Shown here piece after piece: positions 1,868 through 63,833 of a stretch of DNA of 64,000 nt. The stretch spans positions 1,088,001 through 1,152,000 of the forward strand of contig OZ241855.1 in the NCBI GenBank assembly GCA_965202785.1, in the 5' to 3' direction. The stretch comes from Thermodesulfobacteriota bacterium (GTDB lineage Bacteria; Desulfobacterota_D; UBA1144; Nemesobacterales; Nemesobacteraceae). The notes below the pieces were generated by a model, which saw nothing but the letters and a program-made list of their open reading frames with translations, was not told the DNA's origin and did no database searches. Position numbers and translations under genes: made by a program. Every line of letters begins with the position of its first letter. Position 1 is the stretch's first letter.

Positions 1868-1930
1868 TTGATTTTCTCTCATAATAAATTATAGTACAGA
1901 CTGGTTCTTTTTAACCGACTGGTCGTATCT
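1868..1930 (+). promoter_or_regulatory. Putative sigma70 promoter and CGACTGGTCG-type operator-like boxes upstream of adhesin 1
   Basis: TTGATT-16nt-TATAGT, followed by GTACAGACTGGTT and AACCGACTGGTCGTA; similar motifs occur upstream of adhesin 2. Confidence 0.45.
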
Positions 1931-1961
1931 TTATCGGCGTCACCGCGAAGGAGGAAGGTGG

Positions 1962-2039
1962 GTGAAGTCCTTAAGCGAAGTTAACGGAATTTGCGGGCGT
2001 TGTGCCCCGTGCCCCGAAAAATCGGGGGGGGGGGTATGA
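1962..2039 (+). CDS. 25-aa leader ORF through a G11 tract, with its stop overlapping the adhesin ATG
   Basis: AAGGAGG SD then GTG; VKSLSEVNGICGRCAPCPEKSGGGV*; TGA at 2037-2039 overlaps ATG at 2036. Confidence 0.6.
   Translation: MKSLSEVNGICGRCAPCPEKSGGGV
2024..2034 (+). repeat. G11 homopolymer (candidate phase-variation tract)
   Basis: atcGGGGGGGGGGGtATG. Confidence 0.9.
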
Positions 2040-5000
2040 GAACCCGCGGACCGTTTCCGCCGTTTTCTTCCCCGGCCGCATCCTTCGGGGACCGCGGGCG
2101 GCCTGACTCTTCCTACCGGCCCGGGCGGCCGGGTCTTTCGAAATTCTTATCTTTCCCCCCACAGCATTTCGCGGCGGCGCTTCTCGTTCTGCTCGCCCTT
2201 TTTGTGGGCGCGCAGCCTGAAACTGCGCGCGCCCAGTCAAGCGTGCTGGTGAGCAACATCGCTCAGACGGGAGAAGTCGGTATACGTAACGTGGGGAGCG
2301 GCGGAGGCCTTGCCCAGGCTTTCACGACCGGCGACAACGCCGCGGGATACGCCCTGGAAAGCATCCAGGCTGGGGTAATGGCGGCAGAGCACGTAGCCCA
2401 GCTTACAGTAAGCCTCTACTCCGAGAGCTCGGACGTGCCGGGGTCCTCCCTCCAGACCCTGACGAATCCGACCCCGTCTTCGACCGGGGAGCAGACGCTT
2501 GAATTCACGTCGCCCGGGGGAAGGATGCTTGCGGCCAACACGACATATTTCGTGGTCTTCGAATGCGGACACCAAACCTCCTTCTGCGCCAAGATGCGGC
2601 GAACCAGCTCTGACGCGGAAGACGCGGGCGCGGCGTCGGGATGGAGCATAGGCGACGGAGGTCATTCATACAGCGGCACTCGATGGAACTTGTTTACCCA
2701 CGCGATCAGGATCGGGGTGAAGGGCAGCGCTAAGACTGCGGCGGCCAACACCGCGGCCATGGGAACGCCGACGATTTCGGGGACGACGCAGGTGGGAAAA
2801 ACGCTTACGGCGGTTACAACCGGGATTTCAGACACCGACGGGCTGGACACTGTCGCCTGGATGTACCAGTGGATGCGCGTGGACTCGGACGGCACGTCGA
2901 ACCCCGTGAACGTCGGGACTGACTCCGAGACCTATGAGATCCAGTCTGCCGACCTGGGCAAGAGGCTCAAGGTGCGGGTGAGTTTCAGCGACGATGTCGG
3001 CAACCAGGAGACGCTGACCAGCGCCGCGACCGGCACGGTGACGGCACCCGTCCCTGAAATCACCATCGCGCGGCAGGCGGCGTCGGTGACCGAGGGAACC
3101 GCGGCGCGATTCACGGTGAGCGCGTCTCCGGCGCCCGTGGTCAACCTGGACGTGAGCCTTGGCGTCGCCGACGCGGCCGGCCTCGGGGACTTCGTCGCGT
3201 CGGGAGACGAGGGCTCGAAGATGGTTACGATCAGCGCCGGAGCCGCGAGCGCGACCTACAGCGTCCCCACGGTCGGCGACGCCGTGGACGAACCCAACGG
3301 CAGCGTGACGGTCTCTTTAGGTACGGGTACGGGGTACACGCTGGGTACGGCCGCCAGCGCTTCGGTGACTGTGAACGACAACGACGCGGAACCGTCCGTG
3401 AGCGTAACGCGGCCGTCGGTGACTGAGGGGAACATGGGCACGGTGACGCTTGACTTCGTGGTGAGTCTGAGCGGGCTGAGCGCCTATCCCTACCGCTGCA
3501 ACACTCTGGATGAGGACAGCCGGACCACGGCGACGCCCAGCACGGACACCGTGACCGGGGACTACGAGCCGAAGGATGACAATACCCTGTCCTTTCTTAC
3601 ATCCCAGACGCTTACCTTTTCGGTGACGGTGAACGGAGACACCGTGAGCGAGAGGAACGAGAAGGTACTGGTTCGGTGCCGGCGGGGCACCCTGGCCGGC
3701 GTCACGATCTCGGGCACGATCACGGACGACGAACCGATAACGGCGAGCATAACGGCGGGCACTTCCCCGGTAACCGAGGGGACGGCGGCGGAGTTCACGA
3801 TAAAGCTTTCGAAGGGACCGCCTGGCGCGGTCATGGTGAAGTACACGGTAGCGGAGGCTTCAGGCAGCGATTTCGTGGCGACGGTGAATGAAGGGGAAAA
3901 GATGGTTAGCTTCACCGCCGCACCGGGGGACACCAGTCCCCAGAAGACGGTCAACGTCCCCACGGTGAACGACAGGCAGGTAGAGGATCCCGCCGCGGTA
4001 ACGGCGACTCTGGCCGCGGGCACGGGCTACACAGTCGCTTCGGCTCCGAACAACGCCGCTTCCGTAACTGTAAACAGCGAAGACACCAACGCCTCGCCCG
4101 TGATCGGCGGTTCGAGTGCGTTTAGCGTGGATGAGAACGATACCTCCGTGACTAGGATCACCGCCACGGACGCGGATTCGGACGACACGGCAAGGGCGTA
4201 CTCCGTCAGCGGCGGGGCGGACGCGTCGAAGTTCGAGATTTCAAGCTCCGGGGCGCTCGCGTTCAAAACGGCGCCCGACTGGGAGAATCCGACCGACGTT
4301 GCGAGTATGAGTCCCCAGGACGGCGCGGGCAACAACGTGTACGTGGTGACGGTAAGGGTGACGAGCGGGACGGGAGGGCGCTCTCTCTCGACCGACAAGA
4401 CGCTCAAGGTAACGGTGGATGACGTGGATGAGCCGCCGGGGGCGCCGTCGCCGATGATCACGACTTCGACACCGAGAACTCTCGCCGTGGAGTGGACGGC
4501 GCCGACTAACACGGGGCCGGCGATAACGGATTACGGCGTGCGGTACAGGAAAGGGTCAAGCGGCAGTTTCACCGACCATTCCCACAGCGGGACGGGCCTT
4601 ACAACGACTATCACGGGTCTTGATCCGAACTCGAGCTACCAGGTGCAGGTGCGGGCGACCAACGCGGAGGGCAGCAGCGCTTGGGCCTCTGGCCAGGTAA
4701 CGGGCATGACGGCCATGGACCGCCCTCCTGTCCTGACGGTGACGGATACGACACCCTCGGTGGCGGAAAACGAGACTGCCGTGCCGACTACGCTTTCCGC
4801 GGCCGACCCGGACATGGGGGACGGGATAACGGGCTGGAGCCTCGGCGGGGCGGACGCGTCGAAGTTCAGTATCTCAGACTCCGGGGCTCTCACGTTCAGC
4901 CCGGCGCCCGACTACGACAGGCCCGCGGACGTTTCGAGCACGAACCCGCAAAACAATGCGGCCAACAACGAGTACATAGTCACTGTTATCGTGAAAAGCG

Positions 5001-8000
5001 GCGTTACGGGGCGGGAACTCTCCGACAGCGAGACTCTCACGGTGACGGTGACGAACGTGCCCGAGGCGCCGGGAACGCCTTCGCCGACGGTCACGGCCTC
5101 CACCCCCACCACCCTTGATATTGCGTGGGCCAAACCCGCCAACAATGGACCGGAGATCGATGATTACGACGTGAGGTACAAGCTCGCCTCGGCCGACGAC
5201 AGCGCCTTCGTGAACCTTGCGAGCCACGCGGGGACGACCAAGGTGACCACGAGGACGGCGACGATTACGGGTCTTACCCCGAGCATGGAGTACGTGGTGG
5301 AAGTGCGGGCGAGGAACCCGGAGGGGGACGGCGCGTGGGGCTCCGTTACGCGCGCGACGCTTGAGGACAACGCTCCGACCTTCGCCGCCGGAACCCCCAC
5401 GGCATTTACCGTGAATGAGAACGATACCGAGGTGCATGAGTTTGAGGCAAGCGACGGCGACCCCGGGGACATGGTGCTCAGCTACGGGGTCAGCGGGCCT
5501 GACGGGGAGAAGTTCGATATCACTGACCAGGGGGCGCTTACGTTCAAAACGGCGCCCGACTACGAAAATCCGACTGACGATGGGAGGAACAGGGTGTACA
5601 ACGTCACGGTTACGGTGAACAGCGGCGTTACGGGCCGGACGCTCGCCGCGAACCGGCCGATCACCGTCAGGGTGAGGGACGTGGCCGAGGCGCCGGGCGT
5701 TCCGTCGCCGACGGTCACGCAGCGCAGACCCAAGACTCTCACGGTTGCGTGGGATGAGCCCGCGAACACGGGTCCCCCGATAAATGATTACGACGTGCGG
5801 TACAGGAAAGGGAGCGGCGGCGGCTACACCACCCTGACCCACAACGGGACGGCGAGGGAGGCTCTGATCACGGGGCTTGAGAAGGGGACGAGCTACGAGG
5901 TGGAGGTGCGGGCCAGGAGCCTCGAGGGCAGCAGCGACTGGGGTTCCGTGACAGTCGACACGGATGGCTTTGAGATAACGGTGACGGCCGGAGTGGAATC
6001 CCTGGAAGTAAGCTGGCCCGGGGTTACGGGCGGCAATTTCCAGAGGGTAAGGTGGAAGGTGCAAGGCGCGTCAGACCAGACAAGGACTACTGAGATTTTT
6101 TATGACACCACCACCCGTTCCTACACAATCCCCTCCCTGAGTCCTGGCACTGCGTACGAAGTGGAAGTGTCGATCCGCAGAACACCGCCCCTTGTCGTTC
6201 TCGGCGAGGATGTGGCGACGGGGACGCCTCTCTCGCCCCCCGTAGCGGAAAACAACCTGGCCATGGGAACGCCGACGATCACGGGGACCGCGCGGGCCGG
6301 GGAGACGCTTACGGCGGATACCTCAGGGATCATGGACACAGACGGACTTACGCTCGTAAGCTACACGTACCAGTGGCTTCGCGGGGATCCCGGGACATCG
6401 AATCATGCGAACATCTCGGGCGCCTCGGGCTTTCAATACCTGGTAGGGGCCAACGACGTGGGCAAGACGCTCCGTGTTCGCGTAAACTTCACGGACGATC
6501 TCGGAAATCCCGAGACGCTTACAAGCGGTCCGACCGCGACTGTGACTCTCGCGCCCGGGGTGACGGTAGACCCGCCCTCCCTGAACGTGGATGAGGACGG
6601 CGGCATGGGGACTTTCACCGTGGTTCTCAACACGAACCCCGGCGCAAGCGTAACGGTATCCCTCTCTTCCTCCGCCCCGGCGGCGGCACGGGTATCTCAC
6701 TCCCAGCTTATCTTCACCTCCTCTAACTGGAGCAGTCCTCGGACGGTTACCGTGACCGGCGTTGACGACAGCGTCGACAATCCCGGCAACCGGCGCGTAG
6801 CGAAGATTCGGATGACTTACAGCTCGTCAAGCAGTGATTATAGCCAGTCCGCGGTGCAGGACAGGGTGACGGTGAACGTGATTGACGACGAAACCGGCGG
6901 TGGGGGCGGCGGCTCGTCTCCCAACCGCCCGCCGGTCTTCCCGTCAGGTGCCACGGCGCAGACGGCGTATGTGGATCAGGAGTTCATCTACACCGCCCCG
7001 GAGGCGACCGACCCCGATGAGGACCCGATAGACTATGCGGCGGCGCTTCGGGACGGGAGCGCTCTGCCCGGGTGGCTTTCCTTCGACGAAGCGACGCGGA
7101 CATTCTCCGGCACGCCGGAGGCGGGAGACGCTCCCGCCCTTTTTGACATCGAGGTGACGGCCTCTGACGACGGTAGTCCCGCGCTCAGCGCGGCCACCGC
7201 CTTCACCCTTACGGTGGAAGAGTGCAGGGTTTCCGACGTGAGCGGAGAAGACGAGAGCAGCTTGGTGGAATTTGTGGAATGCGCCGCGCGGAGAATCGCG
7301 GCCTCTGACGCTCTGGGGGGGACCCTTGCCCTGCTTGAGCGGTTTCGGGACCCGGAAGGAAACTGGAATGACGGAAGAACCTATCTCGTGTTGCTCACCG
7401 AAGAAGGCGGGGTGTACTTCCACGCGGCCCGGAGGGAGTCTGAAGACCGGGACTGGTCTGCTCTTCCGTGTGCGGAGGGAGGGGGCGTGACTGATATTGA
7501 GGTCGGGGAGGGATGCCCGGTCGGCGGCGGAGGCTACGCTCACCGGTTTTCGGCTTCCCATGTTCCGCTGGCCAACGGAGAGAAGGAGTTTCTGCTGCTG
7601 GGCGGCTTCGGCGGATCTTCTGGAAGGGAAACTCTCTCGGGAGACATAGCAGACCCGTCAACGGAAGCCGGGGATGTGGCGAGCGACGGAGAACTGATGG
7701 AGTTTGTCGAGGACGCTAAAGAGTCTTTAGAGATGGCGATTGGAGATGATGCGGACCCCTCAGGGATTCGGGCGACGCTTCGGGACGGGGAAGGACCGTG
7801 GAAGGCCGGGGAGGTCTACGTCTACATCATGGATGAGGAGACTGGGAGAGTGATATTCGACGGAGGAGACAGGGAGAAGGAACAGACGGAGGCCCTCTAC
7901 AGGCTTGCCGCGCTCGGCAGGGTCGCTCAGTACAGAGAGGGTTCTTCGCTCCTTAGGGGTTACGCCGTCAGGGTGAACGCGGGCGAGGATGAAGCAAGCC

Positions 8001-8236
8001 GCGAGTACGTGGTGGGTTCGGGCTACCTGGGTCCGGGCGGAGGGGGAGAGATGCCGCCGGAAGAAAGACCGCCGGGAGAAGTCGAGGGAGAAGTCGGGGG
8101 AGATGAAAGCGCCGGAGGCGGCTGCGCCGTTGGAGCAGACTCTGGCGGAAGGGTTTTCCCGCTGCTGCTCCTTGGACTCGCGCTTTTTTTCTTGCTGCCC
8201 CTTGGAAGATTCCCGGCGGAAGACGGGGCAGGCTGA
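2036..8236 (+). CDS. Giant surface protein/adhesin: choice-of-anchor-R-like, Calx-beta, 3x(cadherin+FnIII), He_PIG/Ig, tandem Cache-like domains, GGC-CTERM anchor
   Basis: Extended signal peptide ending ARA-Q; LVSNIAQ..AQAFTTG..GYALESI; cadherin (APDYENPTD, VYNVTVTV); FnIII (W..P.NTGP.I.DYDVRY, YEVEVRA); LPGWLSFD...RTFSGTP; C-terminal GGCAVG plus TM helix. ATG 2036 preferred over TTG 1991. Confidence 0.9.
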   Translation: MRTRGPFPPFSSPAASFGDRGRPDSSYRPGRPGLSKFLSFPPQHFAAALLVLLALFVGAQPETARAQSSVLVSNIAQTGEVGIRNVGSGGGLAQAFTTGDNAAGYALESIQAGVMAAEHVAQLTVSLYSESSDVPGSSLQTLTNPTPSSTGEQTLEFTSPGGRMLAANTTYFVVFECGHQTSFCAKMRRTSSDAEDAGAASGWSIGDGGHSYSGTRWNLFTHAIRIGVKGSAKTAAANTAAMGTPTISGTTQVGKTLTAVTTGISDTDGLDTVAWMYQWMRVDSDGTSNPVNVGTDSETYEIQSADLGKRLKVRVSFSDDVGNQETLTSAATGTVTAPVPEITIARQAASVTEGTAARFTVSASPAPVVNLDVSLGVADAAGLGDFVASGDEGSKMVTISAGAASATYSVPTVGDAVDEPNGSVTVSLGTGTGYTLGTAASASVTVNDNDAEPSVSVTRPSVTEGNMGTVTLDFVVSLSGLSAYPYRCNTLDEDSRTTATPSTDTVTGDYEPKDDNTLSFLTSQTLTFSVTVNGDTVSERNEKVLVRCRRGTLAGVTISGTITDDEPITASITAGTSPVTEGTAAEFTIKLSKGPPGAVMVKYTVAEASGSDFVATVNEGEKMVSFTAAPGDTSPQKTVNVPTVNDRQVEDPAAVTATLAAGTGYTVASAPNNAASVTVNSEDTNASPVIGGSSAFSVDENDTSVTRITATDADSDDTARAYSVSGGADASKFEISSSGALAFKTAPDWENPTDVASMSPQDGAGNNVYVVTVRVTSGTGGRSLSTDKTLKVTVDDVDEPPGAPSPMITTSTPRTLAVEWTAPTNTGPAITDYGVRYRKGSSGSFTDHSHSGTGLTTTITGLDPNSSYQVQVRATNAEGSSAWASGQVTGMTAMDRPPVLTVTDTTPSVAENETAVPTTLSAADPDMGDGITGWSLGGADASKFSISDSGALTFSPAPDYDRPADVSSTNPQNNAANNEYIVTVIVKSGVTGRELSDSETLTVTVTNVPEAPGTPSPTVTASTPTTLDIAWAKPANNGPEIDDYDVRYKLASADDSAFVNLASHAGTTKVTTRTATITGLTPSMEYVVEVRARNPEGDGAWGSVTRATLEDNAPTFAAGTPTAFTVNENDTEVHEFEASDGDPGDMVLSYGVSGPDGEKFDITDQGALTFKTAPDYENPTDDGRNRVYNVTVTVNSGVTGRTLAANRPITVRVRDVAEAPGVPSPTVTQRRPKTLTVAWDEPANTGPPINDYDVRYRKGSGGGYTTLTHNGTAREALITGLEKGTSYEVEVRARSLEGSSDWGSVTVDTDGFEITVTAGVESLEVSWPGVTGGNFQRVRWKVQGASDQTRTTEIFYDTTTRSYTIPSLSPGTAYEVEVSIRRTPPLVVLGEDVATGTPLSPPVAENNLAMGTPTITGTARAGETLTADTSGIMDTDGLTLVSYTYQWLRGDPGTSNHANISGASGFQYLVGANDVGKTLRVRVNFTDDLGNPETLTSGPTATVTLAPGVTVDPPSLNVDEDGGMGTFTVVLNTNPGASVTVSLSSSAPAAARVSHSQLIFTSSNWSSPRTVTVTGVDDSVDNPGNRRVAKIRMTYSSSSSDYSQSAVQDRVTVNVIDDETGGGGGGSSPNRPPVFPSGATAQTAYVDQEFIYTAPEATDPDEDPIDYAAALRDGSALPGWLSFDEATRTFSGTPEAGDAPALFDIEVTASDDGSPALSAATAFTLTVEECRVSDVSGEDESSLVEFVECAARRIAASDALGGTLALLERFRDPEGNWNDGRTYLVLLTEEGGVYFHAARRESEDRDWSALPCAEGGGVTDIEVGEGCPVGGGGYAHRFSASHVPLANGEKEFLLLGGFGGSSGRETLSGDIADPSTEAGDVASDGELMEFVEDAKESLEMAIGDDADPSGIRATLRDGEGPWKAGEVYVYIMDEETGRVIFDGGDREKEQTEALYRLAALGRVAQYREGSSLLRGYAVRVNAGEDEASREYVVGSGYLGPGGGGEMPPEERPPGEVEGEVGGDESAGGGCAVGADSGGRVFPLLLLGLALFFLLPLGRFPAEDGAG

Positions 8237-57353: not shown

Positions 57354-59156
57354 ATGGCCAAAATCAGAACACTTCCGGATGTACTTGTCTCTAAGATAGC
57401 TGCCGGAGAAATAGTCGAAAGACCCGCCTCCGTAGTAAAAGAACTTCTTGAAAACTCAATTGACGCTGGGGCGACCAGAATATCCATACACCTTGAAGCT
57501 GGAGGTAAACGGCTTGTAAGAGTGGTTGACAACGGCCACGGAATGTCCCGTGACGATGCTCTCATGAGCATTGAACGCCATGCTACGAGCAAAATAAGGG
57601 ATATCGAGGATCTTTTCTCGATAGAGACCCTTGGTTTTCGCGGCGAGGCGCTTCCGAGCATAGCCAGCGTTTCAAGGTTCAGAATGATAACCGTCGCCGA
57701 GGGTTCGAAATCCGGCACCGAAATCTACATTGAAGGCGGAGTAGTAAGGAAGATAAAGGAGACGGCGTCTCCGGTGGGTTCATCAATTGAGGTTAAGAAC
57801 CTGTTTTTCAACACCCCGCCGCGGCTTAAGTTTCTTAGGAAGCCGGAGACCGAGTTTGGCAGGGTTCTTGAGGTTATCCAGCGCGAAGCTCTTTCACGAC
57901 CCGGAGTGTCTTTTGAGGTTTCCTCAGATGGAAGAACCATCCATCGCTACGGCGCAAGCGAGTCGCTTGCCCAACGCGTAACACAGATAATTCCCGGCAC
58001 GTCGCTTTACCCTGTGGACTTTGAAGACGAGACGCTGGCACTGCACGGCTTCCTGGGAAGTCCTCTGGACCCACGCTCCTCGATGCGCAGGCTCTTTACT
58101 TACGTAAATGCAAGACCCGTAAGGGACCGTTTTATAAACAGGGTTATAATGGAATGTTACGGAAGGATGGTTGAAAAGGGGAAATATCCCCAAGGGGCGG
58201 TCTTTATTGAAAGAGATCCCGCCTTGGTGGACGTGAACGTACATCCGACCAAAAGCGAGGTGATGTTCGAGAACCGGTACAAGGTTGGCCAGAGCATCCG
58301 CCGCGCGATAGGCGGCATGCTTGCCGATGCACCCTGGATGAAGGGTTACAGGGAAAGAACCCAGAAGGCTCTTGAAGATTTCTACGAGAAGCAAAAAGAT
58401 CCCGGACTTTCTGAGAACAGGGGTTACTCCACAAAAGGGCCTTCACCAGAAGCAGCTTCCACCCAGGCCGCCCACAAGACTGAGTCGGGGTCTCTACGCC
58501 CTAACAACGGTGACTCCTCTATATCTGAGAAATCTCCAGAGGCCGCAGGAGAGGATATGTTCTCCGAAGGCTTTTATTCAAACCTCAGGTTCCTCGGACA
58601 GGTAGGAAAGCTTTATCTTGTATGCGAGGATCCGGACGGCATCATTCTTATTGATCAGCACGCGGCCCATGAGCGGGTTAACTTCGAGAGGATAAGAAAA
58701 TCCTATCTCCAAGAAGCTTTTTCCTGCTCCCAGAAACTTCTCATCCCCGAAGTCGTCGAACTTACGGTCCGGGAAATCAATGCGGCGCAGCAGTTTGCAG
58801 ACGAAATGGAGAAACTCGGCTTTGATTTCGAAGTTTTCGGGGAAAACGCGGTGAGAGTGAAATCCGTCCCGGGGTTTTTAAGGGACTCCGATTACGCCCG
58901 GGTTTTTGGCGACCTGTTTGATGAGCTTGATGGTCTGGGCGACCCCAAGAGTTTGGAGCAGCATCTTGATGCCGTGTGCGCGACCATGGCGTGCCACAGT
59001 TCAATAACCGCGAACCGAACGCTCTCGGAGCAGGAAGCGCGGACTCTTTTTGCGGATATGGATGCTTCTCAGAATCCGCACGCCTGCCCTCACGGCCGAC
59101 CGGTTGCGACCCGGATATCGTACAATATGCTTGAAAAGATGTTTAAGAGAACTTGA
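57354..59156 (+). CDS. mutL: DNA mismatch repair protein MutL
   Basis: IAAGE.VERP, GFRGEAL, DVNVHP.K, DQHAAHER, CPHGRP. Confidence 0.98.
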   Translation: MAKIRTLPDVLVSKIAAGEIVERPASVVKELLENSIDAGATRISIHLEAGGKRLVRVVDNGHGMSRDDALMSIERHATSKIRDIEDLFSIETLGFRGEALPSIASVSRFRMITVAEGSKSGTEIYIEGGVVRKIKETASPVGSSIEVKNLFFNTPPRLKFLRKPETEFGRVLEVIQREALSRPGVSFEVSSDGRTIHRYGASESLAQRVTQIIPGTSLYPVDFEDETLALHGFLGSPLDPRSSMRRLFTYVNARPVRDRFINRVIMECYGRMVEKGKYPQGAVFIERDPALVDVNVHPTKSEVMFENRYKVGQSIRRAIGGMLADAPWMKGYRERTQKALEDFYEKQKDPGLSENRGYSTKGPSPEAASTQAAHKTESGSLRPNNGDSSISEKSPEAAGEDMFSEGFYSNLRFLGQVGKLYLVCEDPDGIILIDQHAAHERVNFERIRKSYLQEAFSCSQKLLIPEVVELTVREINAAQQFADEMEKLGFDFEVFGENAVRVKSVPGFLRDSDYARVFGDLFDELDGLGDPKSLEQHLDAVCATMACHSSITANRTLSEQEARTLFADMDASQNPHACPHGRPVATRISYNMLEKMFKRT

Positions 59157-59938: not shown

Positions 59939-61582
59939 TTACTTAGTCCCTCTCCGCAACTGATCTGATACTGGGGTAAAACTCCTGGTTTTATGAAAAT
60001 TCTGAGGTAAGAAGCTTTCTACCCCTTGACCTATATGCGCATCCTTTAAAGAGCGTCTTTTAATCAAGAGGGCCCCAAGCAACGCGAACGCCGCGATAAG
60101 CAGTCCGAACGCTCCTCCGCCCGGATCTCCTCCGACGGCGCAGCCTCCTCCGCCGCTGTCACTTCGCTCCGGCTGTTCTTCAACCCTATAGCCGGAACCC
60201 ACTATGTACAGGATGTCTCCATCATCCGAAAGAATCCGCACGGCGTAACCCATTATGAGCAAGGAATCCTCCGTGTATTCTTCGGGTCCATCCACCGCGA
60301 CAAGCCTGTAGCCGGTCTCTGTGTGTTCCTTCTCCCTGTCCCCTCCGTCGAATATCACTCTTCCCATCTCATCCATGATGTAGATGTAGACGTCCCCCTC
60401 TCTCCACGGCTCCATCCTCAGTATCCCCCGCAGCTGCGCGGGGTCCGTATCATCCCCGATGGCTTGCTCAATAAACATTTTGGCCGACCCGACAAAACCC
60501 TTCAGTTCTTCGTCGGTATCCACATCCCCGGCTTCGGGAGTAGGAACTCCGATATTCGGGTCCCCAGGGAAATCACTGCCCCCGGGAGACTCGTCGAAGC
60601 CTCCAAGCAGTATGAACTCTTTCTCTCCATGCGTCAGGGGAAAATGGGAAGAGGTGAACGGATGCGCGTAACCGCTTCTCTCTCCGTCGTACTCAATGAA
60701 GCATCCCTCCGTCTCAAGCACGGACCCCCCTCCTTCACATCTGAGAGCGGACCAGTTGAGGTCTTCTTTCGTCCTGTCTTCGGCGTGGAAGTACACCCCT
60801 CCTTGTCCGGTGAGAAGCACGAGGTAGGTTTCGCCGTCATTCCATCTCTCCTCCCTGAAATCCTCAAGGAGCGAAAGGGTGCCCGCGAAGCCCTCCTTGC
60901 CGGCGATTTCCCCCGCGGCGCACTCAACCACGAATTCCATGAGACTGTCATCGTCATTTTCGCTCACGTCGGAAACCGAACACATCTCTTCCTGCGTTTC
61001 TTCTTCCGGTTCCTGCGGAGCCGACCCGCCGCCTCCGCCACCGCCGCCTCCCGGCCCAGGTCCGGTCGGGCCCGTCGGCTCGTCTTCGTCATCGTCGTCG
61101 GTCACCGTCACCGTCACCACGTCCTCTCCTACCGAAGTGTTGTAATCGTTGTCAGCCGAGAGGACCGTCATCTGGATGGTCGTCATGCGCTCATCGCCGG
61201 GGTTGTCTTCGTCGTCGTTCACACCCCTCACCGTCACCGTCTGCGGTATGTTCCAGTTGCCGGTCGTGAACATAACCTCCCTGATGTTCGTCGGCGGGGT
61301 CGTGCCGTCGAGCGTCACGACCGTCCGGTCGGAGGAGGTGATGTGGAGCCTAACGTCGGCGCTCGGCTGCGTTTTCAGAACAACATTGAACGTCCCCGTG
61401 CCGCCGGCCTCCGCCACCGTCAAAACCATGGGCGTTACCGTGATCCCGGCTGTCGCCACTTGCCCCGTCCCCGTGCCCCGGACGGCGAAGTTATAGGGGT
61501 TCTCGTTCGAGTCGTTGTTATCGATCAAGACCGTGGCCTGCCGCCCCCCTGACCCCGACGGGTCGAATTTCAGGGTGGTCAT
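59939..61582 (-). CDS. C-terminal part of split adhesin 2 (Ig/Calx-like domain, tandem Cache-like domains, GGC-CTERM)
   Basis: Begins mid choice-of-anchor-D repeat; homologous to the adhesin 1 C-terminus. Confidence 0.75.
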   Translation of the reverse strand: MTTLKFDPSGSGGRQATVLIDNNDSNENPYNFAVRGTGTGQVATAGITVTPMVLTVAEAGGTGTFNVVLKTQPSADVRLHITSSDRTVVTLDGTTPPTNIREVMFTTGNWNIPQTVTVRGVNDDEDNPGDERMTTIQMTVLSADNDYNTSVGEDVVTVTVTDDDDEDEPTGPTGPGPGGGGGGGGGSAPQEPEEETQEEMCSVSDVSENDDDSLMEFVVECAAGEIAGKEGFAGTLSLLEDFREERWNDGETYLVLLTGQGGVYFHAEDRTKEDLNWSALRCEGGGSVLETEGCFIEYDGERSGYAHPFTSSHFPLTHGEKEFILLGGFDESPGGSDFPGDPNIGVPTPEAGDVDTDEELKGFVGSAKMFIEQAIGDDTDPAQLRGILRMEPWREGDVYIYIMDEMGRVIFDGGDREKEHTETGYRLVAVDGPEEYTEDSLLIMGYAVRILSDDGDILYIVGSGYRVEEQPERSDSGGGGCAVGGDPGGGAFGLLIAAFALLGALLIKRRSLKDAHIGQGVESFLPQNFHKTRSFTPVSDQLRRGTK

Positions 61583-63344
61583 CCTTAAACATCGTCGAGC
61601 CGCCCGCCGCCACTGACGAAGCGGGCGACATGGTCACCGTGAAATCAGCCGCGTGCGGGCCGCTCACCGATATCCTCGTCAGCGACAGTGCCGCGAGCCC
61701 CGTGTTGCGGATCGTGAAGGTCCGCGTCAGCATGCCGCCTGCCGCCGCCAACGACCCGAAGTTGGTGCCGTCGGCAGTACTCGGAGAAATGTCTTCGTCG
61801 GGGATGCTCATATTCTTGCCCAGGACGTCAATCTCCGGGACGCCCGTGCCCGTGCCCTTGACCGCGAAGGTGTACGGGGTGCGGCTGCCCGTGGTCGCGC
61901 TGGTGGAGCTGTCGAGCCCGTTGTGCGCGATCGACAGCGTGGCCCTGCGCTCCCCCGTCGCCGACGGCTGGAACCGCACCGTGAACCGCCTCAATCCGCT
62001 GGCACTTACCGTCGCCCCCGCCGGCTGCCGCGTTACCGTGAAGTCTCCCGCGTGCCGGCCGCTCACCGCCACCCGGGGATTCCCCGTCAGCCCCAGACTA
62101 TCGCTCCCCGCGTTGAAGATCGTGAAGGTCCGCGTCGTAAAGCTGCCCGGCACCCCGATCGAGCCGAAGTCGGTGTGGTCGGTGTGAGTCGGCGTCGTGT
62201 CGTCGTGCGCGATCCTCCTGTTGTTGCCCTGCAACTCGATTCGCCGGTGCGTCCCTGTGCCCTTGATGGTGAAGTTGTAGGGGTTCTCGTTCGGGTCGTT
62301 GTTCGCGATCGACAGTGTGGCGGCGTGCAGCCCTCGCCTCGACGGGTTGAACCTCACCACGGCCCTCGTAACGCCGCCGGGTTCCACCGTCGCGTCCGGC
62401 TGGGTGATCACCGTGAAGTCTCCCGAGTCCGTGCCGCTCACAGCCACCCGGGGGTTCCCCGTCAGCTCCAGCGTATCCCTCCCCGTGTTGTGGATCAGGT
62501 ACAGCCCTGTGGCATAGCCCGTGCTCGCCTGCCAATCCGCTTCTCCGATGTCCGTGTTGTCGGCGCGCCTCGGCGTCGTGTCGCCGTCTTCGATGCCTAC
62601 GTTGTTGAACTCGACGTACATTTCAGGGGCTGTTCGGCTGATGCGGATTCTTATTGCATTTGAGGACCCGGTCCATTGTGTGTCTGCATTGCTGAGGGAG
62701 GTACGAAGTCCGTCTGCAATGCTCCATCCCGTTATCGCGCCCGCGTCGTGCCCGTTGGAGTTTGTAACAGCCGCGTTGCCGCAGCTGACAATACCGCTGG
62801 AGGTGTTGCAGTCAAGAACCAGGTAATAGACCGTGTTGGCGGTAAGCTGCGTATTATCGGGCGCCGTGAAGCGAAGCGTCGTCGCGGCCGTCGAACTCGG
62901 TCTCTCCGGTAGGGTCAGGTCGGCCACCTTGGCTCCCGGATTGCTCCCGCTTGCGGAGTGAAGCGTTACCGTCAATAAGTTATAGTTTTCGCGATTTATC
63001 CTAGCGAACGCGACCTCGATGCTATCGAGGGTGTAGCCCCCGCCCGCGCCCCCGGTCGTGAAACCCTGAGCTATGGCCGTAAGGTCCACGTTAGTGTTAC
63101 CAGACGCATTCTGATTGATGTTGCTTATCATTACCTGGCGGGCGGAGGCGGCGCCCGGAACCGCGACGAGAGCGGCTATCGCCAGCATGAGGGCGGCCAG
63201 GACGCGGACATGCCGCCCGGCAAAACTATGAAAGCGGGACGGGGGACCCGGGCGGCCGTCCTGCTCCCCGGGCGCCGGCCGTCTCCAGGCCGGAAAACTC
63301 CTTAACCCTGCCGCGAGAAAGGAGAGGAGCCACCAAACCCTCAT
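61518..63344 (-). CDS. N-terminal part of split adhesin 2 (signal peptide, choice-of-anchor-R-like domain, choice-of-anchor-D repeats)
   Basis: MISNINQ..AQGFTTG..GYTLDSI; repeats I.D.DTTP...D.T.FG...TRTFTI.N.G...ENPY.F...G.G. Confidence 0.8.
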   Translation of the reverse strand: MRVWWLLSFLAAGLRSFPAWRRPAPGEQDGRPGPPSRFHSFAGRHVRVLAALMLAIAALVAVPGAASARQVMISNINQNASGNTNVDLTAIAQGFTTGGAGGGYTLDSIEVAFARINRENYNLLTVTLHSASGSNPGAKVADLTLPERPSSTAATTLRFTAPDNTQLTANTVYYLVLDCNTSSGIVSCGNAAVTNSNGHDAGAITGWSIADGLRTSLSNADTQWTGSSNAIRIRISRTAPEMYVEFNNVGIEDGDTTPRRADNTDIGEADWQASTGYATGLYLIHNTGRDTLELTGNPRVAVSGTDSGDFTVITQPDATVEPGGVTRAVVRFNPSRRGLHAATLSIANNDPNENPYNFTIKGTGTHRRIELQGNNRRIAHDDTTPTHTDHTDFGSIGVPGSFTTRTFTIFNAGSDSLGLTGNPRVAVSGRHAGDFTVTRQPAGATVSASGLRRFTVRFQPSATGERRATLSIAHNGLDSSTSATTGSRTPYTFAVKGTGTGVPEIDVLGKNMSIPDEDISPSTADGTNFGSLAAAGGMLTRTFTIRNTGLAALSLTRISVSGPHAADFTVTMSPASSVAAGGSTMFKDDHPEIRPVGVRGAAGHGLDR

Positions 63345-63388
63345 ACCCCCCCCCCCATTTTGCTCATGGAGATATCTGCAAGTTTCAT
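63341..63388 (-). CDS. 15-aa leader ORF through a G11 tract, with its stop overlapping the adhesin 2 ATG
   Basis: AGGGGG SD-like, MKLADISMSKMGGGV*; same GGG GTA TGA junction as at 2024-2039. Confidence 0.6.
   Translation of the reverse strand: MKLADISMSKMGGGV
63346..63356 (-). repeat. G11 homopolymer (C11 on the + strand)
   Basis: aaatGGGGGGGGGGGtATG on the minus strand. Confidence 0.9.
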
Positions 63389-63833
63389 GGTTTAAGCCCC
63401 CTGTTTTTCAGATGATTTAAGTGTAGCGACAAATAGTCGGTACTATATTATTATGTTCGGACCGGTCGTTGTCAATATAAAAGGTCGCGTCATGACGGCT
63501 GACGCGGAAACCGGAACATCCGCCGATGAATTCAGGCATAGAAAAAATCTATGATGCCTCCGGGGGTGGTTGTCCCGGATGACGGGCAATCCTGTCTCAC
63601 GCTTTAGAGGTAACGATATGTAAGTGAATGTGAAGGGGAAAAAGAAAGCCGGAATGGCATTGAAACGGAGAGGATGGGCTTGAGACGACAACAAAAAAAG
63701 GAGCAGGAAAATTCTGCATGGCAAAAACAGTCCGGATTCAGATTTTACAGATGCCCGGAGTTAAGCATGAGAAGCGAGAGCTGCCTGGAAAGGGCAAAAT
63801 CTTGAATGAAGGCTGTCTGGCGTTAATCGCGGC

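Follow-up and report, generated by a model that had tools for sequence, protein, structure and literature searches.

The window, meaning here the whole 64,000-nucleotide (nt) stretch that was analyzed, covers positions 1,088,001 to 1,152,000 of the forward strand of contig OZ241855.1 (GenBank assembly GCA_965202785.1) of a Thermodesulfobacteriota bacterium. It carries, near each of its ends, a gene for a predicted surface protein whose start codon is directly preceded by a run of 11 G residues (G11) and a single T, and the run closes a short leader reading frame whose stop codon overlaps the start codon of the gene. Five such loci, designated A to E, occur in the genome; those in the window are C (the first gene) and D (the second gene). 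The features of locus D, in window coordinates, are as follows (SD, Shine-Dalgarno).

63447..63475, minus strand, promoter-like site TTGACA-17-AATAAT, agreeing with 11 of 12 consensus positions, a match by sequence alone
63397..63401, minus strand, SD-like element GGGGG, 8 nt before the leader ATG
63341..63388, minus strand, leader reading frame with ATG at 63388, 15 codons MKLADISMSKMGGGV and TGA
63346..63356, minus strand, G homopolymer of exactly 11 bases, at -12 to -2 of the main ATG
63341..63344, minus strand, ATGA junction, at which the main start codon (63344-63342) overlaps the leader stop codon (63343-63341)
59939..63344, minus strand, surface-protein gene D, split in the assembly into 63344-61518 and 61582-59939

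The features of locus C are as follows.

1868..1895, plus strand, promoter-like site TTGATT-16-TATAGT, agreeing with 9 of 12 consensus positions
1950-1954, plus strand, GGAGG, 7 nt ahead of the leader GTG at 1962
1962..2039, plus strand, leader reading frame with a GTG start and 25 codons, ending in GGG GGG GGG GTA TGA
2024..2034, plus strand, G homopolymer of 11 bases, followed by T, the main ATG at 2036 and TGA at 2037-2039
2036..8236, plus strand, surface-protein gene C, 2,066 amino acids (aa)

The leader frame of locus D also ends in GGG GGG GGG GTA TGA, its last four sense codons lying in the G run, and the ATG at 63344-63342 opens a frame of 608 codons as assembled. The preliminary description had reported a G11-T-ATGA junction ending a 15-codon leader at a second adhesin gene, and the sequence is exactly as it stated, with the same 16 bases found at 2024-2039. 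The 11-base run of locus D was unaltered, with neither gap nor mismatch, in contigs of two public runs (62832-63390 and 62842-63390) that were assembled independently; minority variants are lost in contigs, and the two runs belong to a single study that possibly includes the source sample.

The genome (handle G000) is a single contig of 1,643,464 bases with a G+C content of 50.7%. Within the window alone, the two tracts amount to six overlapping matches to G9, compared with a mean of 1.35 in shuffled sequences, and six was reached in 3 of 100 shuffles, which is weak by itself. Over the whole genome, G/C runs of exactly 6, 7 and 8 bases numbered 385, 45 and 4, none of 9 or 10 bases was present, and seven runs of exactly 11 bases were found, a distribution that decides against chance. 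The repeat at this locus thus stands well above the genome background, as is expected of a contingency locus. The 3' side of the run begins with TA in all seven 11-base tracts and with TATGAG in five of them. The seven tracts, by genome position, are listed below.

13453, G11-T-ATGAG, locus A
358685, G11-T-ATGAG, locus B
1090024 (window 2024), G11-T-ATGAG, locus C
1151346 (window 63346), G11-T-ATGAG, locus D
1579713, G11-T-ATGAG, locus E
503938, C11, in a lipoprotein-like gene (G000:C1:503802-505670, plus strand), on the coding strand and in frame between the ATG and the lipoprotein signal peptide
1338588, C11, in a split lipoprotein gene (G000:C1:1338073-1339241, minus strand), which the tract breaks into a 224-codon and a 170-codon frame that an additional C would rejoin

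All seven tracts lie at genes for exported proteins, five of them adhesin-like and two lipoproteins. In one related genome (G049), leaders homologous to that of the lipoprotein-like gene at 503802-505670 carry C11 to C14. Since similar tracts are found inside the coding regions of other exported-protein genes, both here and in relatives, the common denominator of the seven is a slippery run combined with an exported product, and not coupling through ATGA.

The single length shared by the seven tracts raises the question of whether that length is correct. The tracts may be real and the stated value of 11 an artefact of sequencing or consensus, with true lengths differing between the loci. One length at seven of seven tracts is odd, each related assembly has a modal length of its own, and the window carries 10 bases near 61573 that are absent from the contigs of both runs. 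However, independent contigs of the two runs give 11 at locus D, and in other single-contig genomes of the genus a single assembly can show lengths anywhere from 9 to 17. Frame breaks were found at 2 of 156 A/T runs of 8 or more bases and at 41 of 2,000 random sites, and this lack of enrichment makes a general homopolymer assembly artefact unlikely. A length artefact is accordingly considered very improbable.

Loci A, B, D and E have in common a cassette made up of a -35-like TTGACA, an SD-led leader, the G run, the ATG and about 15 further codons. Relative to the cassette of locus D, identity is 93% for E (over 152 nt), 82% for A and 81% for B, and the likeness among the four copies starts at the promoter-like site. 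The leaders of these four loci are thus paralogous copies of one promoter-leader cassette. The preliminary description had argued that the architecture was conserved without conservation of the leader sequence; the leader of D did not, however, arise independently, being 93% identical to the copy at 1579713 and about 81 to 82% identical to two more. Its statement that the leaders of C and D are unrelated to each other was correct, and the copy at 2024 matches the others at the junction only, the sequence common to locus C and the other four loci being AAAAT(C)-G11-TATGAG alone.

The anatomy read from the sequence is a sigma-70-like promoter, a 5' leader of about 100 nt, and an SD-led short frame that runs into the G tract, followed by T and the main ATG. 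In all five leaders, a start codon (ATG or GTG) lies 6 to 9 nt behind GGAGG or GGGGG. Between two near-identical cassette copies the leader start has switched from ATG to GTG, which indicates that a start codon was kept while neighboring codons changed. The 3' end of the 16S rRNA carries an anti-SD of the CCUCC type, and GGAG peaks 6 to 11 nt before starts in the genome. The cassette also exists in a sixth copy, which has diverged (72% identity) and lies at genome position 1267203 (G000:C1:1266101-1267301, minus strand). There the leader frame is broken, and an interrupted purine run, G-rich with three A's and SD-like, is aligned to the tract position and followed by a GTG start. Its product is a cytoplasmic Rieske-type protein of 365 aa. 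The G run, which covers -12 to -2 of the main ATG, the place of the SD-like run in the sixth copy, is therefore the likely ribosome-binding site of the main gene.

These features may also be taken to describe a fixed, strong start region, in which an A/U-rich stretch and the G run form the ribosome-binding site, the leader is an ordinary coupled frame, the tract is stable in length and no switching takes place. Such a reading would accommodate the exact length of 11 at seven of seven tracts, the unchanged tract of locus D in the contigs of two runs, the SD position of the tract in the sixth copy together with the CCUCC anti-SD, the intact mismatch repair genes, and the fact that gene callers start protein E (P0124, 408 aa, on two contigs) at the ATG after the tract. 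However, C11 stands on the coding strand inside the two lipoprotein genes, and these opposite-strand runs cannot serve as ribosome-binding sites; one of them breaks its gene. Run lengths also differ among paralogs in the relatives G049 and G042, and a perfect 11-base homopolymer is unnecessary for ribosome binding and would decay unless the run itself were selected. A fixed start region is thus regarded as unlikely.

A role of the tract as a promoter spacer was ruled out for C and D, where a promoter-like site lies about 90 nt upstream. Some tracts of G049, read by eye, do lie between -35-like and -10-like hexamers.

Leader RNA features were limited. No Rfam match was found in the leaders of C and D, and the predicted fold was significant in one of the four leaders folded, that of locus C, in which G11 pairs with the upstream CCCCGUGCCCC (z = -3.9); the other three gave z near 0. 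The G run could be the target of a small RNA with a C/U-rich loop, its length tuning repression in the way that RepG acts on the tlpB leader of Helicobacter pylori, and a G run in the 5' leader near a start codon is the defining feature of a RepG target as described in PMC8295292. Against this stand the absence of any Rfam match in either leader, no search having been aimed at a candidate small RNA, and the runs on the noncoding strand of other genes, which cannot be such targets. This explanation appears extremely improbable.

A change of one G moves the SD-led leader among three frames, and this frame behavior, expected of a contingency locus, would influence expression as follows. Replication slippage by one G would shift the leader between three states. 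A leader that stops on the main ATG (ATGA), as those of C, D and E do with G11, would permit reinitiation after termination. A leader that overruns the ATG in the wrong frame would occlude the start codon; this second state is that of A and B with G11, whose SD-led leaders differ by two A's before the tract, read in the other frame and stop 86 nt into the gene. In the third state, in-frame fusion would add an N-terminal extension to the protein, which requires one G more (G12) at C, D and E and one G fewer (G10) at A and B. The length of the run would also shift the longest possible spacing between the ribosome-binding site and the start codon. By analogy with relatives, the fused state may be the full ON state, and the assembled consensus would then be OFF or low at all five loci. 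We infer that the tract changes length in this organism and that the run is used as a ribosome-binding site.

An upstream frame ending within a downstream start codon is also the arrangement of translational coupling. An SD and a start codon for the upstream frame are present at all five loci, and the ATGA overlap at three of five here and at none of six loci in the relatives G042 and G003. The weak or absent ribosome-binding site that characterizes a coupled downstream gene was not found, the G run being SD-like at -12 to -2 and able to pair with CCUCC when G-U pairs are included. The proposal in the preliminary description that the leaders keep the same frame relation to the adhesin ATG was right for C, D and E but not for A and B, which overrun the ATG in the other frame, nor for G042 and G003, in which the junction reads ATGT.

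The proteins behind the tracts are built for export. In protein D, a 45-residue N-terminal extension is followed by a signal peptide, a choice-of-anchor R domain, three choice-of-anchor D repeats, a Cache-like module and a Cys-containing C-terminal sorting tail. Protein C consists of an N-terminal extension, a signal peptide, choice-of-anchor R, cadherin, FN3 and He_PIG domains, and then a C-terminal module and a Cys-containing tail as in D. In proteins A to D, the choice-of-anchor R domain follows the signal peptide directly; the model NF041539 scored 89.8 bits in D and 93.2 bits in C, both above the 30-bit cutoff. A Cache-like module near the C terminus (sCache_2, 26.3 bits in E) and a final Gly-Gly-Cys tail with a membrane helix and basic residues are found in all five proteins. 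The tails of D and C scored 16.5 bits (E = 0.008) and 13.9 bits (E = 0.055) with the MYXO-CTERM model (TIGR03901), below its 20-bit cutoff, and are taken to resemble that family only.

Proteins A to D carry about 45 residues ahead of the signal peptide. At these loci the first ATG, GTG or TTG after codon 1 lies at codons 53 to 73, past the signal-peptide core, and with no such codon between codon 1 and the hydrophobic core, translation must start at the ATG behind the tract or further upstream. The first 14 or so codons of A, B and D (MRV and a hydrophobic stretch; window 63344-63210 in D) are homologous to the start of E's own signal peptide, and in A, B and D this stretch precedes about 30 more residues and then a second, real signal peptide. 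An E-like start followed by a second signal peptide suggests that the 5' cassette was grafted onto genes already having export signals.

Ten bases at window 61573-61582 are absent from the contigs of both runs (depth 21.6 of 21.6 and 75.6 of 75.6), and without them the two frames of D merge into one gene of about 1,150 codons with the choice-of-anchor D repeat intact. The 10 extra bases are either an assembly error or a minority disrupting allele. The mutL gene lies at window 57354-59156 on the plus strand, a few hundred bases from the 3' end of gene D, probably by coincidence.

Protein database searches for fused, longer forms of D were dominated by choice-of-anchor D repeat proteins, with a best identity of 52%, and those for fused forms of E returned the identical 408-aa form, one homologue at 48% and nothing else. 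Two further proteins in the genome have the same C-terminal tail with ordinary starts and no tract. The preliminary description had suggested that the frames upstream of such paralogs be examined for a preference to end at ATGA or to fuse in frame: an ATGA end was found at three of the five tract-bearing paralogs, and in-frame fusion at none of them, with the two same-tail proteins lacking a tract altogether.

Long G/C runs are general in the genus. Runs of 9 or more bases were present in all 36 genus genomes, some at contig ends, with hundreds of such runs in relatives. The numbers of runs of exactly 9, 10 and 11 bases in five single-contig relatives are as follows.

G004, 87, 35 and 6
G012, 24, 22 and 1
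G006, 15, 22 and 24
G049, 6, 3 and 22
G016, 1, 10 and 11, with many more of 12 to 17 bases

The modal run length is accordingly 9 in G004, 9 to 10 in G012, 10 to 11 in G006, 11 in G049, and 12 or more in G016.

Hypermutability of such runs is evident in the genus. Ten of the 36 genomes, G000 among them, encode homologues of the N-terminal domain of D. In the homologues of G049, G023, G051 and three loci of G047, an SD-led ATG is separated from the signal peptide by a coding-strand tract of C9 to C11, and the two are out of frame in six of six cases; a fourth G047 paralog has a decayed tract and a leader ATG in frame with the signal peptide, and it looks like a locked-ON form. In the G049 sample (40 loci fetched, 41 tracts), paralogous leaders differ mainly in run length. 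The members of family II have lengths of 10, 11, 11, 12 and 13, another leader family has seven copies at 11 and one at 12 together with changes in the T run after the tract, and two copies with identical 70-nt flanks have C10 and C9. Frames were compared at 22 G049 loci belonging to four leader families, the main frame being uncertain at two of them: the leader is in frame at 2 loci, removal of one base would bring it into frame at 11, and addition of one base would do so at 9. Such a spread of frames is the mark of slipped-strand contingency families whose copies are mostly OFF in the consensus of the population.

The pattern G9+-TATG was found in 10 of the 36 genus genomes, again with G000 included. 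G042 has eight matches, of which six were examined, and five belong to one family with the leader-G run-T-ATG layout, each comprising AGGAGG, an ATG, a leader of 22 to 26 codons, G9 (four loci) or G10 (one locus), T and ATG. The proteins of this family have a long N-terminal extension and a signal peptide. The same layout occurs at one locus of G003, with G9. The leaders and proteins of G042 and G003 are unrelated to those of this genome, and no Pfam or NCBIfam match was found for the proteins. All six loci read ATGT, with no stop on the ATG, and none is fused. The layout thus recurs without sequence conservation, and the ATGA overlap is not a constant part of it. The preliminary description had proposed a selected, recurrent device; the recurrence of G11-T-ATGAG before five paralogous exported proteins agrees with this, but ATGA cannot be counted among its constant parts. 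A G049 locus with G11-T-ATG (L122) was dropped as an analogue, only a 61-codon frame lying downstream of it.

Two wider searches added little. A search of JGI metagenome contigs with a pattern built from the four cassette copies, leaving the tract length free, returned 0 stretches, and near-identical records may lie outside the set searched. A scan for AAAT-G9+-TATGAG in contigs of other genomes, with the organism's own genome left out, gave 31 unrelated matches (Campylobacter and others), which is about the chance level and uninformative on spread.

Several side observations concern the tracts in general. By GC skew, the origin of the genome lies near 730 kb and its terminus near 1,620 kb, and the G run lies on the leading strand in six of the seven tracts, that of locus D being the exception. 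The strand choice of tracts also shifts along the chromosome in G049 and G006. In a hand count over five relatives (G004, G006, G012, G016 and G049), 49 of 64 G11 tracts had a T immediately 3' of the G run, and the reading TA-C(n)-ATTTT is common among the tracts of this genome and those relatives, whatever the direction of the gene. In another species of the genus, the lipoprotein gene at locus L001 (G020:C1:831435) carries an in-frame G10 right behind its lipobox cysteine.

Taken together, these results favor a reading, to which we assign a probability of roughly 55%, of G11 as a slipped-strand (contingency) tract that occupies the translation start region in an exported surface-protein family. 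Such a switch would be of a known kind, familiar from the expression switches of pathogens; what is unusual here is a coding-strand poly-G that abuts the start codon and closes a leader frame. Several findings weigh against this reading. The tract length is 11 at seven of seven loci, and at locus D in the contigs of two runs, with no length variation seen in the genome, and identical lengths in unrelated sequence contexts are not explained by simple slippage. MutS and MutL are encoded by intact genes (mutS and mutL), so that slippage is not boosted by loss of mismatch repair, and such a loss is ruled out as a cause. Because an ATG of its own, beside an SD-like run, is available to the main gene, a frame change of the leader cannot fully silence it, and the switch could be weak. 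Among the 11 loci of the G-run-then-ATG layout (five here and six in G042 and G003), the fused state was found at none, which leaves fusion as the ON state unproven for this layout, and the ATGA overlap was found at only three.

The rarity of the fused state in DNA (none of the 11 loci of this layout and 2 of the 22 in G049) would also suit programmed recoding, in which a set fraction of products would have the leader joined to the main frame, through stuttering of the RNA polymerase or frameshifting of the ribosome on the run, and the out-of-frame DNA would be the working state. Homopolymer runs of 9 to 11 bases are long enough for RNA polymerase slippage. The part of PMC3711429 that treats polymerase slippage names only A or T runs. 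The shift needed for recoding varies, however, from locus to locus (in G049, one base fewer at 11 loci and one more at 9; here, one more at three and one fewer at two), no conserved stimulatory RNA structure was found among the four folded leaders, of which one was significant, and a majority of OFF copies is equally expected of multicopy contingency families. Programmed recoding is thus distinctly improbable.

Within the reading of G11 as a contingency tract, it is possible, although tentative, that the G run has a triple role as ribosome-binding site, as the last codons of the leader and as slippage tract, and that it would then form a three-state, partly graded switch (reinitiation, occlusion and fusion) in place of a plain ON/OFF switch. 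In at least three species of this uncultured lineage, unrelated exported-protein genes may have gained this wiring, by new origin or by spread, with the consensus never fused.

Homopolymer contingency loci are well known from pathogens, such as the poly-G in the signal-peptide coding region of Neisseria pilC and the poly-G genes of Campylobacter. The tracts described here resemble them in having an overlong G/C run at the 5' end of surface-protein genes that form multicopy families and, in relatives, in that the run length of each paralog sets the frame relative to an upstream start. They differ in that the run precedes an in-frame ATG able to start the protein alone and overlaps the end of a separate leader frame as well as the likely ribosome-binding site, and the host is an uncultured marine bacterium. 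In lic1A of Haemophilus influenzae, a tetranucleotide repeat combined with alternative start codons in different frames results in strong, weak or no expression. A similar three-state translational logic, with the number of repeats selecting the start codon that reads in frame with the gene, would apply here. In lic1A the tetranucleotide repeat lies inside the gene and the starts are ahead of it, whereas the present loci have one start upstream and one directly downstream of a homopolymer, and one of the states is a stop-start overlap.

In the tlpB-hp0102 system of Helicobacter pylori, as described in PMC8295292, a variable G-repeat in the leader has graded posttranscriptional effects through the small RNA RepG, and the repeat is also discussed there as a possible translational enhancer or ribosome standby site. 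That run lies far upstream of the ribosome-binding site and acts through RepG, whereas the run described here abuts the start codon. With translational coupling as presented in PMC3711429, the loci share an upstream frame ending within the downstream start codon (ATGA) at three of five loci here, but the downstream gene has an SD-like run of its own, the upstream frame is a leader of 15 to 25 codons and not a gene, and the overlap is absent at the two other loci here and at the six loci of G042 and G003. A literature search on phase variation, translational coupling and poly-G tracts near start codons found no paper describing this layout; nor was any paper found that links Dadabacteria with phase variation, the papers returned for Dadabacteria and homopolymers being off topic by their titles and abstracts.

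In practical terms, such tracts lead gene callers to wrong starts or to reported pseudogenes in metagenome-assembled genomes. The layout also provides a simple model that could be rebuilt in the laboratory, in which a single homopolymer ties the leader frame to the ribosome-binding site and the start codon. If the tracts do switch, free-living or host-associated marine bacteria with small genomes would vary their surface proteins stochastically, as pathogens do, which would indicate strong pressure from phages, grazers or hosts.

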